Shown here in pieces: positions 396-6,947 of a stretch of 7,057 bases of DNA. The notes under the pieces were generated by a model. It saw nothing but the letters and a program-made list of their open reading frames with translations, was not told where the DNA came from and made no database searches. Position 1 is the first letter of the stretch, and each line of letters opens with the position of its first letter. The stretch is from a virus. Lineage: Duplodnaviria > Heunggongvirae > Uroviricota > Caudoviricetes. The DNA lies in IMG/VR virus record IMGVR_UViG_2645728091_000009; one strand, written 5' to 3'. A program made the position numbers and the translations under genes.

Positions 396-471
396 TGGTG
401 GCCCTTGCTGGATTTGAACCAGCGACCTGGCGATTATGAGTCGCTCGCTCTCACCACTGAGCTAAAGGGCC
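396..471 (-). tRNA. ileZ: tRNA with anticodon CAU (Met or lysidine-modified Ile2; ileZ-like)
   Basis: Manual cloverleaf: acceptor GGCCCTT/AAGGGCC, D stem GCTC/GAGC, anticodon loop CTCATAA, T stem GCTGG/CCAGC with loop TTCAAAT, discriminator A, encoded CCA. Met versus Ile2 identity cannot be decided from sequence alone. Confidence 0.8.
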
Positions 472-3071: not shown

Positions 3072-4127
3072 TCATGCTTTCCACTTCAGGACACCCGAAT
3101 TTCTCGCGTGCATTAAAAAACGAATCAGCAACAACAGCTGGCTGCCGTGTTTTTCTTCAAAATCTTTTACCCCGGCGTGCAGTTCGTTATGACATTTACG
3201 GCACAGCGGAATAACAAACAAATCATCAGCCTTTGTTCCCATCCCTCCCAGTCCATGACCAATGATGTGATGCGGATCATCTGCCTGATTACCGCACGTC
3301 ATGCATTTCTGCGTTTTTACCCAGCGCGTGTATACAGGCATCTCTTCCCGTTGTGGTTTCTGGCGCTGGAGATACTGAGCCGGTGACTCCGGATCAACGG
3401 CAATGCTGACCACCGTCTTTTCCTGTGGCGGGTTTTGCTGGTGGGCGTGAGGCAGCAGCGCAAGATTTTTTGTGCGCTGCTTCAGTATGCTGGTGGCGGT
3501 CTGCTCTCCCGGTACGATGTCGCTTTCGCGGTACACCGAGCGGATTTTTTCCGCACGCAATCCCAGAGAACGACGTAATACTGCCTCCGGCAATACGTCC
3601 GCTACCTGATTGCAGACCGCCCACCAGGATAATTCAGCCAGCGATAACTCCCGCTCCTGTGTACCGTTTATTGCGTGGCGGATGACGTCAATCATCCAGG
3701 ATGTCAGGTTTTGTTGAGCAAGTTGCCCGAGTGATTCTGAAGTCTGGTCGCGTAACTGATTATCACAGTGCCAGCACAATACCATCGCGCCGGTACCGTA
3801 ACGATGTATGACGGTTTCACTGTGGTGGTAGTCACCATGAGGCCACTGGCAGGATTTAACATGGCGTAACAGCCAGTCAGACAATGCGCCAGCGCCGCCA
3901 GCAGCACGAGTCACCCGCTCATCGCTGAAAAATGGCAGTAATGATTTATCTTCCGCGAGCGGCTGGCGCACGGCAGGAACAGCTCCTGACGGCAGACCGC
4001 GCATGCTTTTCGGTTCCGGCTCCACCAGCACCCGGGGATTATGAAATACCTGTATGGATTCACGGCCCGGCTTAAGGACCACCAGCCCGAGTTCCGGTAC
4101 CAGAACAGGTCGAAGTAATACCCGCAC
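3072..4127 (-). CDS. YdfU-like (DUF968) prophage protein with a C-terminal YbcO/DUF1364-like Cys/His zinc-binding, putative nuclease domain
   Basis: 351-aa ORF, translationally coupled to both neighbours. C-terminal CMTCGNQADDPHHIIGHGLGGMGTKADDLFVIPLCRKCHNELH follows the C..C...H...G..GTK..DL...C..CH.E pattern I recall for YbcO-type proteins. Size matches Qin YdfU (349 aa). Confidence 0.75.
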   Translation of the reverse strand: MRVLLRPVLVPELGLVVLKPGRESIQVFHNPRVLVEPEPKSMRGLPSGAVPAVRQPLAEDKSLLPFFSDERVTRAAGGAGALSDWLLRHVKSCQWPHGDYHHSETVIHRYGTGAMVLCWHCDNQLRDQTSESLGQLAQQNLTSWMIDVIRHAINGTQERELSLAELSWWAVCNQVADVLPEAVLRRSLGLRAEKIRSVYRESDIVPGEQTATSILKQRTKNLALLPHAHQQNPPQEKTVVSIAVDPESPAQYLQRQKPQREEMPVYTRWVKTQKCMTCGNQADDPHHIIGHGLGGMGTKADDLFVIPLCRKCHNELHAGVKDFEEKHGSQLLLLIRFLMHARNSGVLKWKA

Positions 4128-4128
4128 G

Positions 4129-4407
4129 TTACCTCCAGATACGCTGCTGGAATGTGCGGGACGGAAGCGGTGGGCGTTCAGAGTAAGGCAGTCTGACTGA
4201 GATTATCCAGTGTCGGAAGTCGAAGCTGAGGTCTTTCTGAAACTCGTAACCACGTCCGCGGTAGTTCTGAATTAGCCACTCTGCCTGCTCTTCAGTACAT
4301 GGATCATGCTGGAACCAGTCAGATTTGAATGCATGAGAACGCCGCCCGTGCCTGCTGGCAAAGACGGCTGAATTATCAGAATTGTGTTGTCTGGAATTTT
4401 GCGCCAT
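4129..4407 (-). CDS. Hypothetical protein (92 aa), first gene of the ydfU-rusA-Q operon
   Basis: Good RBS (GGAGAAAG about 7 nt upstream of the ATG at 4407); stop 1 nt before the start of the downstream 351-aa gene. No recognisable motif. Confidence 0.55.
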   Translation of the reverse strand: MAQNSRQHNSDNSAVFASRHGRRSHAFKSDWFQHDPCTEEQAEWLIQNYRGRGYEFQKDLSFDFRHWIISVRLPYSERPPLPSRTFQQRIWR

Positions 4408-4473
4408 CGGCTTTCTCCGGTGGCACAGTGTTACTCAACAGGGGTTCAGCCCTGCGCTGAATTGTAGATGAAT

Positions 4474-4782
4474 TCACTCATCTTCAAAAGCAGAAAAACC
4501 AGCCTTAATCCCAGCTTCTTTCAGAGACGGCAACGATGTGACAAATTCATTTGCACGCAAAATAAAACCATCCGTCACAAGCCCATCCACCAAATGAATT
4601 AACGCAGCTCCACTCTTCCTTTGTTGAGACTGTAAACATTTAATACGGCAGTGGCTGACAATAGCGCCATTCTCAACGCGCACAGTATAGAGGCCATCCT
4701 CACTAAAAATTTCACGTAATTCTTCGATTTTCATCAACAGAATCCTTCCAGATAAATAGCACTCCCCCTGTTCGGGGTCCAT
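4474..4782 (-). CDS. Hypothetical small protein (102 aa from the ATG at 4782, or 86 aa from the internal ATG at 4734)
   Basis: Both candidate starts have purine-rich RBS (GGGAGAAGAGGG before 4782; GGAAGGA 8 nt before 4734). Lies in the AT-rich island just downstream of the cassette terminator. No recognisable domain. Confidence 0.5.
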   Translation of the reverse strand: MDPEQGECYLSGRILLMKIEELREIFSEDGLYTVRVENGAIVSHCRIKCLQSQQRKSGAALIHLVDGLVTDGFILRANEFVTSLPSLKEAGIKAGFSAFEDE

Positions 4783-4817
4783 CCCTCTTCTCCCTGCGCG
4801 CTACTTAAGTATTTTTG

Positions 4818-4847
4818 ATTCTATTCTGGCACCGTCCAAAACTTCAA
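4818..4847 (-). promoter_or_regulatory. Candidate sigma70 promoter for the 4474-4782 ORF
   Basis: On minus strand: -35 TTGAAG (plus 4842-4847), 18-nt spacer, -10 TAGAAT (plus 4818-4823). Hexamer matching only. Confidence 0.3.
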
Positions 4848-4867
4848 ACACGTTGAAAATAAAAACA

Positions 4868-4887
4868 AAAAACCCGCCGAAGCGGGT
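4868..4887 (-). terminator. Rho-independent terminator after the HTH-peptidase gene; left copy of a 20-bp direct repeat
   Basis: Minus-strand RNA ACCCGC-UUCG-GCGGGU followed by UUUUUUGUUUUU. The 20-mer AAAAACCCGCCGAAGCGGGT (plus strand) is identical to 6703-6722. Confidence 0.7.
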
Positions 4888-4891
4888 ATAC

Positions 4892-5998
4892 TCAAACAAT
4901 CTGGAAAATATTTCTTGGATTTGTAATAGGTCTGTTGATGGAGAACAACTCACGAATTAAATCTTGGCTCAAGCCAGTTTTCATAAGAATTCTTAGCCAA
5001 GTTGCATCATCCAGCATTTCAATCGCCTCGGCCAGCATGCCGGGTTCTTCAGGGCGCAAAAGTTCATCACCAGGTTCAACTCTCGTATACCCTCTGGAAT
5101 TAAGATGCATATAGCCAGTTCTTGCCTGTTCCTGGGTCAATAAGCCTAATGCGCTGGCTCGATAAATACACATTTTAAGGCTGATTTTCCATCTAAGTTT
5201 AAATTCAACCAGAGCATTCCAGTCGAATTGCTTACCTCGTATTCGTGGAAATTCTTTAATGAAAGATAACCTGGGAACTAATAAGGCGCTCGAAAAGTGA
5301 TCGGCTTGTGATTCCGTAAGTTTATCACCTGTCGTTATGCCCTCATGCATTACTAAATGCCCTAATTCATGACCTAAATCAGAGCGAAATCTACATATGC
5401 TTTTTTTAACATTGTTCCTGATGATAACAGGCCTGTTATTGTGAACAGTAAAAGCATCAACACGATCATCGACTCCCGTAACATGCGCAACGATTACCCC
5501 TAAACTCTCCGCCAATTTAACCATTGATGATATAGGGCCAAGACCTAAATTCCAGGCACGGCGACAATCTTCTGCCACTCGCTCAATATCATTCGGAGTA
5601 AGTAATTCAGCCCCTGGGTGCTCCGGTATGTTAACGTCAGGAAATTCGATTTCACCTTCAACAGCAGAAATTATAATATTAAGAATCTCAGCCCTGGCCA
5701 ATACACTATTAGTCAGCGTTTGAGTCCTGGACTTCTTACTCCGAAAATGGCAGACATCACTTTCCAGAGCGTATTTTCGTTCAGTAAAAAGAAAACTGGA
5801 CTTAATCATAAGCGCTGAAGATATTAACTCAAGACATTGCTCCGATGGCCTGCACCCCTTCTCCAGTTTGCTAACGAATTGCTTTGTCTTGCCAATTTTT
5901 TCGGCTAACTCTTCACAAGAAAGCCCAACAGCCATTCTCGCTAGTTTGAGCTTATCACCCCGATACTCAGTGAAGTTATTCACCTGATGTTCCATCAC
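4892..5998 (-). CDS. XRE-family HTH fused to an ImmA/IrrE-type (COG2856, Peptidase_M78) Zn-metallopeptidase; candidate antitoxin/regulator of a two-gene module
   Basis: 368-aa ORF. N-terminal HTH (LKLARMAVGLSCEELAEKIGKTKQFVSKLEKGCRPS). HExxH at residues 210-214 (HELGH) with downstream ESQADHFSSALLVP matching the E...A..FA..LL.P third-ligand region of ImmA/IrrE peptidases. About 120 aa of C-terminal extension without recognisable motif. Start (GTG 5998 or ATG 5995) overlaps the upstream gene. Confidence 0.88.
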   Translation of the reverse strand: MMEHQVNNFTEYRGDKLKLARMAVGLSCEELAEKIGKTKQFVSKLEKGCRPSEQCLELISSALMIKSSFLFTERKYALESDVCHFRSKKSRTQTLTNSVLARAEILNIIISAVEGEIEFPDVNIPEHPGAELLTPNDIERVAEDCRRAWNLGLGPISSMVKLAESLGVIVAHVTGVDDRVDAFTVHNNRPVIIRNNVKKSICRFRSDLGHELGHLVMHEGITTGDKLTESQADHFSSALLVPRLSFIKEFPRIRGKQFDWNALVEFKLRWKISLKMCIYRASALGLLTQEQARTGYMHLNSRGYTRVEPGDELLRPEEPGMLAEAIEMLDDATWLRILMKTGLSQDLIRELFSINRPITNPRNIFQIV

Positions 5999-6626
5999 TG
6001 CTCACATCCAAATCTTTATCCTTCGTACGCCGACGAAGAGGCACCTTATTAATCTCCGCTTCGTCAGGGAGTGTGTTATAATCAAGAGACATAAGCGGCA
6101 TCGATGCTGTAGATTGATGAGAAACTATACTAATCTGAGCACCATAAGTATTAAATCCAACAAGAGCTACCTCCCAACGAGGCAGTGTGGACTCTAATTC
6201 ACCATCGCCCTCTTCGGATAAAAAAGGCTCAGCTATGACTCGCCATGTAATATCTTGCTCAGCCTCAACATCACCAAACAATGAGAGCTGCTCATACTCT
6301 ACTTTATTTCGACGCAGACGATGTTTCTTTTTGGGGTTATTAATGCAATCTTTGGTAAATTGTAGCGGAACTTTATTTAAAGCAACTACATAGTCCAACC
6401 CCTTGGAAATCATCTCAAGGCCAGGAATTGCATCTTCATTTTGAATAAGATGATTTCTGACCCAATCATAAGCCCTTACACCTTCAGACCAGTTGCTGTC
6501 TAATGCGTGCTTATGATAGTACAGCTGCTCAAGTACGTTAGCGATCTCCGCCAACAAGTGGCGAACATAGTTTTCAGCAAGATAAGGTTGAAATTCCCAA
6601 CAAGGAGCTAACTGATTTTCATTCAT
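5976..6626 (-). CDS. Hypothetical 216-aa protein with no recognisable domain, co-operonic with the HTH-peptidase; candidate toxin/effector partner
   Basis: Long ORF in an AT-rich segment whose 3' end overlaps the downstream gene start by 23 nt. Acidic C-terminal half and a basic patch (NPKKKHRLRRNK). No TM segment or catalytic motif I can identify. Weak RBS. Confidence 0.7.
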   Translation of the reverse strand: MNENQLAPCWEFQPYLAENYVRHLLAEIANVLEQLYYHKHALDSNWSEGVRAYDWVRNHLIQNEDAIPGLEMISKGLDYVVALNKVPLQFTKDCINNPKKKHRLRRNKVEYEQLSLFGDVEAEQDITWRVIAEPFLSEEGDGELESTLPRWEVALVGFNTYGAQISIVSHQSTASMPLMSLDYNTLPDEAEINKVPLRRRTKDKDLDVSSDGTSGE

Positions 6627-6661
6627 TTCAAGTTTCGCTTTTTTTAGAATTCGTAAACCAC

Positions 6662-6690
6662 ATATTTTCGCATTTTTCTATTTTTGTCAA
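6662..6690 (-). promoter_or_regulatory. Candidate sigma70 promoter of the two-gene cassette
   Basis: On minus strand: perfect -35 TTGACA (plus 6685-6690) followed 15-17 nt later by an A/T-rich -10 region (TGcGAAAAT / AAATAT), about 40 nt upstream of the 216-aa start. Confidence 0.4.
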
Positions 6691-6702
6691 CCAGACTAAT
6701 GC

Positions 6703-6722
6703 AAAAACCCGCCGAAGCGGGT
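6703..6722 (-). terminator. Rho-independent terminator downstream of hok; right copy of the 20-bp direct repeat
   Basis: Minus-strand RNA CCCGC-UUCG-GCGGG followed by UUUUU. Identical 20-mer to 4868-4887. Confidence 0.5.
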
Positions 6723-6791
6723 TAAGTGCGGGTGCGTTGAGGATGCCTGGCACATCAGAGGTGGCGGGAGATTACTCCCCCGCCGGGTCTC

Positions 6792-6947
6792 TTACTCCTC
6801 AGGTTCGTAAGCTGTGAAGACAGCGACCTCCGTCTGGCCGGTTCGGATTCGTACCTCGCAGAGGTCTTTCCTCGTTACCAGTGCCGTCACTATGACGGTT
6901 AAACAGATGACGATCAGGGCGATTAACATCGCCTTTTGCTGCTTCAT
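6792..6947 (-). CDS. hokD: Hok/Gef-family type I toxin (small membrane-damaging peptide), HokD/RelF-like
   Basis: 51-aa product from the internal ATG at 6947: MKQQKAMLIALIVICLTVIVTALVTRKDLCEVRIRTGQTEVAVFTAYEPEE. It has the Hok signature (hydrophobic helix, TRK.LCE, conserved C-terminal region) and matches HokD as I recall it. RBS AGGAGA 9 nt upstream. The in-frame 64-aa extension in the ORF track is probably not used. Paralog assignment (hokD versus hokC-like) unverified. Confidence 0.8.
   Translation of the reverse strand: MKQQKAMLIALIVICLTVIVTALVTRKDLCEVRIRTGQTEVAVFTAYEPEE

Follow-up and report, generated by a model that had tools for sequence, protein, structure and literature searches.

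The DNA between positions 4888 and 6702 of the window (the whole 7,057-nt stretch that was analysed) is very probably a type II toxin-antitoxin (TA) cassette of the RosmerTA class, carried as a ‘moron’ in the nin region of a lambdoid prophage. A moron is an autonomous promoter-genes-terminator unit, and the cassette is a real, self-contained two-gene unit in an E. coli prophage. We assign the pair to RosmerTA because gene A matches an RmrT model and gene B matches RmrA models. The initial annotation had proposed a TA or anti-phage module built on an HTH-COG2856 protein, with RosmerTA as the example, and this proposal holds up well: both genes match RosmerTA models (E = 8.5e-26 for gene A and 6e-105 for gene B), and the family relative Vmi480/Vmi470 is a proven toxin and antitoxin. 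The RosmerTA family of this pair is already catalogued, and the cassette is ordinary, not new.

An insert at the hokD terminator

The features of the locus are as follows.

6792-6947, minus strand: HokD, 51 aa, neighbouring gene
6703-6722, minus strand: upstream copy of the 20-bp direct repeat AAAAACCCGCCGAAGCGGGT (plus-strand spelling), which is the hokD terminator hairpin; single copy at the empty site
4888-6702, minus strand: the whole inserted cassette, 1,815 bp, delimited by a blastn alignment of the window to the empty site L002, junction read-out and composition
6653-6691, minus strand: tandem GTTGAC (6691-6686) and GTTTAC (6658-6653), spaced by 33 bp and overlying the -35 box and the predicted start of transcription
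6685-6690, minus strand: -35 box TTGACA of the cassette promoter, read from the sequence; all five aligned upstream regions of orthologues carry GTTGAC unchanged
5976-6626, minus strand: gene A, putative RmrT-type toxin, 216 aa, ATG start (PADLOC RmrT PDLC03929; phrog_5786)
4892-5995, minus strand: gene B, putative RmrA-type antitoxin, 367 aa from ATG 5995, or 368 aa from GTG 5998
4866-4887, minus strand: hairpin ACCCGC-UUCG-GCGGGU with U-run, terminating the cassette; 4868-4887 form the second copy of the 20-bp repeat, on the downstream side

By blastn, the insert is missing from the hok-rem site of prophage PPompW_132418, which is homologous in other respects, and mapping against this empty site places the insert exactly between hokD and rem. 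The resulting boundaries are identical to those drawn earlier without any comparison genome, and the hok neighbour named then is present as HokD. The 20-bp repeat that brackets the insert is a duplicate of the hok terminator, whose stem-loop (6723-6706) has a predicted energy of -15.1 kcal/mol; the empty site has one copy only of this repeat and terminator. The insert (4888-6701) has a GC content of 0.414, compared to 0.505 in the left flank and 0.528 in the right flank. It is thus AT-rich as had been observed, although the flanks are not uniformly at 52-58% and locally span 49-58%.

Both of the overlapping minus-strand genes called at the outset are present as open reading frames where they had been placed, and they are real genes and not chance reading frames, because both have strong homologues. 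They lie on the same strand, preceded by a single promoter-like region and followed by a single terminator, as expected for one operon. The RefSeq start of gene B is ATG 5995, one codon after GTG 5998, and the two genes overlap by 20-23 nt depending on which start is chosen.

Gene A and its family

The match of gene A to PDLC03929 extends over residues 7-209 and profile positions 5-195 of 198, and the gene also matches phrog_5786 (E = 6e-85). All 62 relatives retrieved by profile search match PDLC03929 as well, the best at E = 3e-72. Whether the 216-aa protein belongs to a described toxin family had been left open at first; it falls in a catalogued RmrT family, and the novelty implied for it is not supported.

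The product of gene A is soluble and acidic (pI 4.9), with no transmembrane or hydrophobic segment, and it has no Pfam match at E values up to 1. Searched against the PDB and BFVD, its good AlphaFold model (pLDDT 84.7) gave no significant structural match, and sequence searches of the PDB returned no relatives of the family. There is a weak restriction-endonuclease-like hint. The PD-(D/E)XK nuclease superfamily is defined by an alpha-beta-beta-beta-alpha-beta core whose second strand bears a conserved D and whose third bears (D/E)xK. The catalytic motif is absent from gene A, and we rejected this assignment. The residues conserved in the family are D43, W46-x-x-G49-x-R51-x-Y53, E110, R129 and E133.

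Gene B and the repressor-protease alternative

RmrA proteins are characterized by a length of ~360-400 aa, an N-terminal XRE-type HTH and an M78/COG2856 Zn-peptidase with HExxH. Gene B matches fourteen PADLOC RmrA models, the best being PDLC03943 over profile positions 2-342 of 370, and is 29% identical to the verified RmrA (E = 2e-35). The fusion of an XRE HTH to a COG2856 peptidase with HELGH, which had been read from the translation, is found in full: HTH_3 covers residues 17-63, Peptidase_M78 covers residues 177-282, and HELGH is intact at residues 209-213 (367-aa numbering). These Pfam domains and the PADLOC RmrT and RmrA matches are the outcome of the HMM searches that had been suggested as a check. 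The C-terminal ~85 aa lie outside any Pfam domain, and a PDB sequence search with gene B returned matches to the HTH only.

HTH plus M78 is the repressor-protease logic common to ImmR/ImmA and DdrO/IrrE. By this logic, gene B could be an ImmR/ImmA- or CapH/CapP-like switch, a damage-sensing repressor-protease acting on prophage or neighbouring genes, with gene A as a non-toxic accessory. In fact, gene B matches the capP (E = 1.6e-14) and capH (E = 1.5e-4) models in addition to Peptidase_M78, although these matches are at the domain level only and the window contains no CBASS genes. In ImmR/ImmA, DdrO/IrrE and CapH/CapP, two separate proteins regulate other genes, whereas here the HTH and peptidase are fused in a single protein that travels with a candidate toxin gene, and gene A always accompanies gene B in the contexts that we examined. 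Furthermore, an ImmR/ImmA-type repressor and protease would reside in the immunity/integration module, but the cassette is an optional hokD-rem insert in the nin region, outside that module, and the backbone is unchanged in prophages that lack it. We consider a switch of this kind highly improbable, and the RosmerTA assignment remains our preferred reading of gene B.

Relatives of the pair and the polarity of toxin and antitoxin

A relative with experimentally proven roles is the Vmi480/Vmi470 pair of Vibrio mimicus MGIVmi1. On its own, the upstream protein kills E. coli; the HTH-peptidase encoded downstream neutralises it, and the gene for the Vmi470 peptidase does not tolerate deletion by itself (Luo et al., 2015; PMC4671572). 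Gene A's family most likely includes Vmi480 (VMD_06480). The link is indirect: it combines 8 residues at the N-terminus and about 9 at the C-terminus, deduced from primers, with locus architecture, and runs through a 199-aa V. fluvialis protein (P0033, locus L010). P0033 matches gene A's profile (E = 1.1e-11) and PDLC03929, its termini match those deduced from the vmi480 primers, and its locus has a 5-bp gap, a 361-aa HTH-M78 partner and a resolvase upstream. Like the window pair, Vmi480/Vmi470 has the toxin first and a large HTH-Zn-peptidase antitoxin second. The two differ in that this family relative, which shares about 25% identity with gene A, belongs to a mobilisable genomic island and has a 5-bp gap, whereas the window pair overlaps and is in a prophage.

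A second relative, the E. coli prophage TA pair E101_02645/E101_02644, is reported to be 33% and 42% identical to Vmi480 and Vmi470, and its presence makes clpP essential (Rousset et al., 2021; 10.1101/2020.05.25.114553). The E101 toxin resembles gene A in having no predicted domain and in belonging to an E. coli prophage pair (10.1101/2020.05.25.114553), but it is a different protein, in which the T46S suppressor residue corresponds to W46 of gene A. In looking for this toxin (WP_001179380.1), a further homologue search gave no second E. coli lineage, and tblastn against phage genomes gave no match.

The polarity seen in Vmi480/Vmi470 is not universal among such pairs, because in PD-lambda-2 the Xre-peptidase is itself toxic when over-expressed and the upstream gene rescues (Vassallo et al., 2022; PMC9519451). 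By this precedent, gene B would be the toxic effector and gene A its neutraliser. However, a natural IS5 insertion in strain FDAARGOS_1249 breaks gene A and leaves gene B intact, a combination that would be lethal if the polarity were reversed, and in Vmi480/Vmi470 it is the upstream gene that is lethal and the peptidase gene that is undeletable alone (PMC4671572). The resemblance to PD-lambda-2 is also limited in composition, since that system has three components, including a HigB-like upstream gene and the toxic peptidase protein (PMC9519451). Its required third gene is related to a P4 antitoxin. In the window, gene A does not resemble HigB and a third gene is lacking, with the terminator directly 3' of gene B. 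We give reversed polarity very little credence. That the IS5 insertion in gene A is tolerable with gene B intact points to gene A as the toxic partner, and we take this natural knockout as indirect support for the view that gene A would be toxic alone and neutralised by gene B.

Transcription signals

The claim that the cassette has its own promoter stands in part. The -35 box TTGACA is present and is kept unchanged in orthologous cassettes of five taxa, but the -10 is weak and a consensus promoter scan did not call the cassette promoter. The scan missed it because the closest -10 candidate, AAATAT (6667-6662, spaced 17 nt from TTGACA), agrees with the consensus at just 3 of 6 positions. Promoter-like sites in the region were not above chance (4 found compared to 4.9 expected), and those within gene B were at chance level only.

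The tandem GTT(G/T)AC sites at this promoter recur with a spacing of 31-33 bp in six of seven loci, from E. coli, Xenorhabdus, Serratia and Vibrio, and such a pair appears in shuffled sequences at a frequency of about 1e-4. We infer that the tandem may be an operator for the RmrA HTH domain. At the other end of the cassette, gene B directly precedes the UUCG-loop terminator that had been claimed, and the hairpin and U-run (4887-4872, minus strand) score -10.9 kcal/mol with z = -2.3.

Distribution

Among 5,426 complete E. coli genomes, 237 carry the cassette and 2,812 have the empty site. The locus in the window is 99-100% identical to >200 public E. coli genomes, including the well-studied strains 042 (EC042_RS07045 and EC042_RS07050), ABU 83972 and ML35. 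A close-alignment genome scan of species representatives found E. albertii and Xenorhabdus only. Two ‘plasmid’ matches are not counted as true plasmid carriage, because both show this prophage context again, on a linear 237-kb record. Different prophages, and also islands, carry orthologous pairs at other accessory sites, and together with the filled and empty sites in E. coli this is the cargo-like distribution that had been anticipated.

The order of gene A followed by an HTH-M78 gene, with either a 14-23 nt overlap or a 5-bp gap, is found in all seven contexts examined, which comprise three different prophage positions and integrase islands, and is conserved from E. coli to Vibrio. Distant homologues adjoin defence-type genes encoding SIR2, a retron-like RT with an AAA protein, and a deaminase.

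Phage defence and the addiction alternative

RosmerTA systems defend against phage (Millman et al., 2022; Ernits et al., 2023, PMC10440598). In the verified system of E. coli OLC-716, the rmrA deletion could not be transformed (Millman et al., 2022). Like the window pair, OLC-716 RosmerTA is a toxin-first two-gene operon on a mobile element, and its ~370-aa antitoxin joins an XRE-HTH to an M78/COG2856 Zn-peptidase in one protein. The subfamilies differ for both partners. The verified RmrT is PDLC03935 whereas gene A is PDLC03929, and a link between the two sequences was negative by both BLASTP and hhalign; the verified RmrA is PDLC03949 whereas gene B is PDLC03943. In E. coli, the RosmerTA of Gordonia phage Kita confers a narrow-spectrum defence (Ernits et al., 2023, PMC10440598), and Ernits et al. 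report that Rosmer toxins have a fold in common. The Kita system is likewise phage-encoded, with an RmrA-type protease antitoxin and an unrelated upstream toxin, but this toxin is predicted to contain transmembrane regions and depolarises the membrane (PMC10440598), in contrast to the soluble product of gene A.

Phage protection has been demonstrated in the OLC-716 and Kita subfamilies only. Defence by the window cassette is thus an extrapolation across subfamilies, because the verified RmrT shows no detectable sequence similarity to gene A and the RmrA identity to gene B is low. One could instead suppose that the cassette is a genuine TA system that, like hok/sok, keeps the prophage or a mosaic segment from being lost and has no part in phage exclusion. 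The cassette directly adjoins hokD, another post-segregational killer, Vmi480/Vmi470, on its genomic island, has been presented solely as a TA pair (PMC4671572), and the literature that we searched holds no phage-defence data for the PDLC03929 subfamily. Against these points, RosmerTA members with other toxins defend against phages, and the distant homologues have the defence-type neighbours listed above. We judge addiction as the sole function to be unlikely. Addiction and phage exclusion are not mutually exclusive.

A model for the cassette

In the model that we favour, the cassette would be transcribed in the lysogen from its own weak promoter, and RmrA would bind both GTT(G/T)AC sites, which overlie the -35 box and the start of transcription, making the operon autoregulated. 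RmrA would keep RmrT inactive through direct contact. An infecting phage would then inactivate or titrate RmrA, possibly via peptidase cleavage as in ImmA/ImmR, IrrE/DdrO and CapP/CapH, and the freed RmrT, acting in the cytoplasm, would arrest or kill the cell before the invader's cycle ends. The outcome would be protection of the lysogen population and of the resident prophage. In the lysogen, the terminator would block read-through into rem...Q.

As an identification, the locus matters little, as PADLOC or DefenseFinder would already call RosmerTA. It has modest value as a clean, base-pair-resolved example of a defence/TA ‘moron’ inserted at a terminator in a lambdoid prophage, and the conserved tandem GTT(G/T)AC sites, also of modest value, give a testable RmrA operator. 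For the PDLC03929 RmrT family, including Vmi480, we tentatively suggest, as possible rather than probable, that the toxin has an undescribed fold and activity, that the conserved residues may form a new active site or target-binding surface, and that control may be exerted by the fused HTH-Zn-peptidase together with host ClpP, as the E101 relative suggests. This family is widespread, already serves through vmi480 as a counter-selection marker, and gave no structural relative, which makes its mechanism a sensible subject for biochemistry.

Organization and family assignment

The cassette inserted between hokD and rem carries gene A, which encodes a 216-aa RmrT-type protein, and downstream gene B, which encodes an RmrA-type HTH-Zn-peptidase. 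Its features are as follows.

5976-6626, minus strand: gene A, ORF of 216 aa, ATG start
4892-5998, minus strand: gene B, ORF of 368 aa, GTG start
6690-6685, minus strand: -35 box TTGACA, perfect match
6691-6686, minus strand: repeat core GTTGAC, containing the -35 box
6658-6653, minus strand: repeat core GTTTAC, over the predicted transcription start
4887-4872, minus strand: cassette terminator, ACCCGC-UUCG-GCGGGU plus U-run, -10.9 kcal/mol, z = -2.3
4868-4887 and 6703-6722: exact 20-bp direct repeat bracketing the insert, AAAAACCCGCCGAAGCGGGT on the plus strand

Both overlapping minus-strand ORFs of the initial annotation were recovered. In RefSeq, gene B begins at the next codon, ATG 5995 (367 aa), and the overlap with gene A is 20-23 nt. 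The segment is AT-rich, as had been judged by eye (GC of the exact insert 0.414 versus 0.505 in the left and 0.528 in the right flank; 0.40-0.44 over 4650-6750 and 0.49-0.58 in the rest of the window). Likewise, gene B does join an HTH domain (HTH_3) to a metallopeptidase (Peptidase_M78) with HELGH, the cassette ends at the strong UUCG-loop terminator that had been noted, and its upstream neighbor is indeed a hok toxin, the 51-aa HokD.

The predicted HTH-COG2856 toxin-antitoxin module is of the RosmerTA type, which is defined as a Zn-peptidase antitoxin with a partner toxin of unknown function (Millman et al., 2022); an rmrA deletion was unobtainable in that study. Gene A matches the PADLOC RmrT model PDLC03929 (E 8.5e-26), with protein and profile both aligned almost end to end, and gene B matches fourteen RmrA models, with PDLC03943 at the top (E 6e-105), as well as the capP and capH models. 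Based on these matches and the published definition, the pair classifies as a RosmerTA system by the criteria of standard defense-annotation tools. The description of the 216-aa protein as lacking a recognized domain stands for Pfam, in which our search found none, but the RmrT match means that it is not an orphan. In PHROGs, gene A falls into phrog_5786 (unknown function; E 6e-85) and gene B into phrog_2439 (E 8e-123), and in NCBIfam gene B hits the spr1629 repressor/antitoxin family below threshold.

The verified RosmerTA of E. coli OLC-716 has a 239-aa RmrT that matches PDLC03935 and an RmrA that matches PDLC03949. Gene A shows no similarity to this RmrT by BLASTP or profile comparison, and gene B is 29% identical to its RmrA over 301 residues (E 2e-35). 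The window pair thus represents another sequence subfamily of this system type. Gene A also differs from the RosmerTA toxin of Gordonia phage Kita: the Kita toxin depolarizes the membrane (PMC10440598), whereas gene A encodes a soluble, acidic protein (pI 4.9) with no hydrophobic segment.

Insertion site and distribution

In the empty-site reference, prophage PPompW_132418, rem comes immediately after hok (gef), and relative to this prophage the window carries an extra 1,815 bp, exactly 4888-6702. The 20-bp repeat that brackets this insert is the hok terminator hairpin, present as one copy at the empty site, so hok now ends at one copy (-15.1 kcal/mol, z = -4.2) and the cassette at the second. 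Cassette insertion thus either copied a terminator or proceeded by recombination through one. The route may have been microhomology, a template switch or recombination of two similar terminators.

The cassette is present in 237 of 5,426 complete E. coli genomes, whereas the hokD-rem junction is uninterrupted in 2,812. Together with its use of other sites elsewhere and the lack of a match among deposited phage genomes, this bears out a cargo-like distribution. Hundreds of public genomes contain near-identical sequence, with at least 99% identity in 224 of the 238 matching records from complete E. coli genomes. The cassette also occupies this site in E. coli 042, where its genes are labeled ‘hypothetical protein’ and ‘helix-turn-helix domain-containing protein’. 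From hok through the cassette to rem, the window is 99.7% identical to 042, against only 83-93% in nearby prophage genes, a contrast that reflects the usual lambdoid mosaicism. The comparison over 2053-2724 shows this mosaicism too: the DUF968 and RusA genes reach only 83% identity to 042, and the Q antiterminator region, with a 188-aa ORF at 2143-2709, does not align to it.

Other copies occupy other places. An 80% identical cassette of E. coli KL53 (locus 3983-5717) lies in a second type of lambdoid prophage, flanked by DinI/DUF1367 and DUF550 genes, with no hok alongside. Its terminator shares the ACCCGC/GCGGGT stem but carries a TATAT loop. Orthologous pairs lie between KilA-N/ANT genes and DUF1367 plus Q genes in Xenorhabdus, between Q and holin in Serratia, and in integrase islands beside SIR2, deaminase or retron-like genes in Vibrio. 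Neighbors of distant pairs include a reverse transcriptase with an AAA/SMC-like ATPase (retron-like; V. fluvialis locus 8555-11111), a SIR2_2 protein and a large deaminase (loci 11623-12660 and 9004-10530), which is consistent with a defense-island context.

The gene A product of Escherichia albertii NBRC 107761 (= DSM 17582) is 100% identical to that of the window, which indicates that the cassette crosses a species boundary within Escherichia. Two E. coli ‘plasmid’ records, pMY504-2 (NZ_AP026904.1) and CP088590.1, carry it at 99.8%; they are 237 kb linear and 175 kb, and non-mobilizable. In the record inspected, pMY504-2, the cassette sits in full lambdoid prophage context, so this may be a chromosome fragment or mis-assigned contig.

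Elsewhere in the window, three tRNA genes lie downstream of a DNA methyltransferase gene (512-1570):

225-298, 315-388 and 399-471, minus strand: tRNA genes

Stx-type and other lambdoid prophages also have tRNA genes at such a spot (tRNA-Arg, Arg, Ile, or Arg, Lys, Met in related prophages).

Promoter and candidate operator

The cassette had been credited with its own promoter. The perfect -35 box stands, but the best -10, AAATAT after a 17-nt spacer, is weak, and consensus scanning did not call the promoter; promoter-like sites here are no more frequent than expected by chance. Upstream of gene A lies an imperfect 28-nt direct repeat with 33-bp spacing. The upstream regions of the E. coli, Xenorhabdus, Serratia, V. 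parahaemolyticus and V. fluvialis loci, whose proteins are only ~25% identical, can be aligned, and GTTGAC is invariant. Two GTT(G/T)AC sites 31-33 bp apart occur in six of seven loci versus ~1e-4 of shuffled sequences; a metagenomic locus has instead two GTTGAC sites 19 bp apart. We infer that the pair marks the promoter and a candidate operator for the RmrA HTH domain.

Toxin family and polarity

Searching 1.84 billion representative proteins with a profile returned 69 relatives of gene A, mostly ~200 aa. All 62 aligned relatives match PDLC03929; they derive from Enterobacterales, Vibrio, Aeromonas, Photobacterium, Alphaproteobacteria and metagenomes, and each is annotated as hypothetical. 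Among 50,697 deposited phage genomes, tblastn matched neither gene A nor a Vmi480-like protein, although phrog_5786 and phrog_2439 contain gene A and gene B proteins. The family appears restricted to islands and integrated prophages, which may be cryptic.

One relative, P0033 of Vibrio fluvialis (199 aa), has MTPKPEFY at its N terminus and KIQKEVDDDE at its C terminus. A 5-bp gap separates its gene from the downstream gene for a 361-aa HTH-M78 protein, and a resolvase gene lies ~570 bp upstream on the opposite strand, all within an integrase island. The V. mimicus toxin Vmi480 (198 aa; its primers specify an MTKKPEFY N terminus and a KVQKKVSDE C terminus) is likewise separated by 5 bp from its 362-aa HTH-Zn-peptidase antitoxin Vmi470, with a res gene ~600 bp off (PMC4671572). 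This likeness in termini, gap, partner and flanking gene indirectly places Vmi480 in the gene A family. Vmi480 alone kills E. coli, Vmi470 neutralizes it, vmi470 is undeletable on its own, and the toxin has served as a counter-selection marker since 2015 (PMC4671572). An E. coli prophage pair 33%/42% identical to Vmi480/Vmi470 makes clpP essential (Rousset et al., 10.1101/2020.05.25.114553); gene A is ruled out as that toxin, which has T46 where gene A has W46.

In PD-lambda-2, the gene-B-like partner is toxic and the upstream gene is its antidote (PMC9519451). We do not consider this reversed polarity a serious rival here. In E. coli FDAARGOS_1249, an IS5 interrupts gene A at about codon 40 (window ~6502-6510; locus 3124-4180), and gene B is intact, with a WP accession identical to that of E. 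coli 042. Such an insertion would be tolerable if gene A encodes the toxin but lethal if it encodes the antidote. This natural toxin knockout is a single case.

The AlphaFold2 model of gene A (62-sequence alignment; pLDDT 84.7, pTM 0.74) comprises two long helices, a three-stranded sheet, two short helices, three further strands and a disordered charged tail. Foldseek against PDB and BFVD found nothing significant, and profile searches found no PDB sequence relatives. Family-wide conserved residues are D43, W46, G49, R51, Y53, E110, R129 and E133. The PD-(D/E)XK signature is not conserved: only 36% of the family has an acidic residue at position 78, and the third strand reads [R/Q]-F-x-[R/K]. 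A nuclease-like role is a weak lead.

Model for the prophage module

We propose that in the lysogen the module is expressed from its own weak, autoregulated promoter, where RmrA would repress the operon through the GTT(G/T)AC pair and keep RmrT inactive. A phage-derived cue would inactivate RmrA, perhaps by its peptidase, as in ImmA/ImmR, IrrE/DdrO and CapP/CapH; gene B matches the capP and capH models. Freed RmrT would then arrest the cell, presumably with an abortive-infection outcome. The gene identities, architecture, insertion, conserved pairing and conserved cis sites are seen here; toxicity and neutralization are taken from the literature on a family relative and phage defense from that on other RosmerTA subfamilies, so that defense by this member is proposed by analogy. 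The only serious rival is that the pair acts solely in addiction, a role compatible with defense; we do not regard a pure regulatory switch as a serious one.

The system type, antitoxin family and toxin family are already catalogued. Our analysis adds the exact moron boundaries with a duplicated hok terminator, a conserved candidate operator and a natural IS5 knockout. It also adds a confident model for the RmrT family of gene A that lacks a structural relative, and this toxin family may have a new fold and a new activity.
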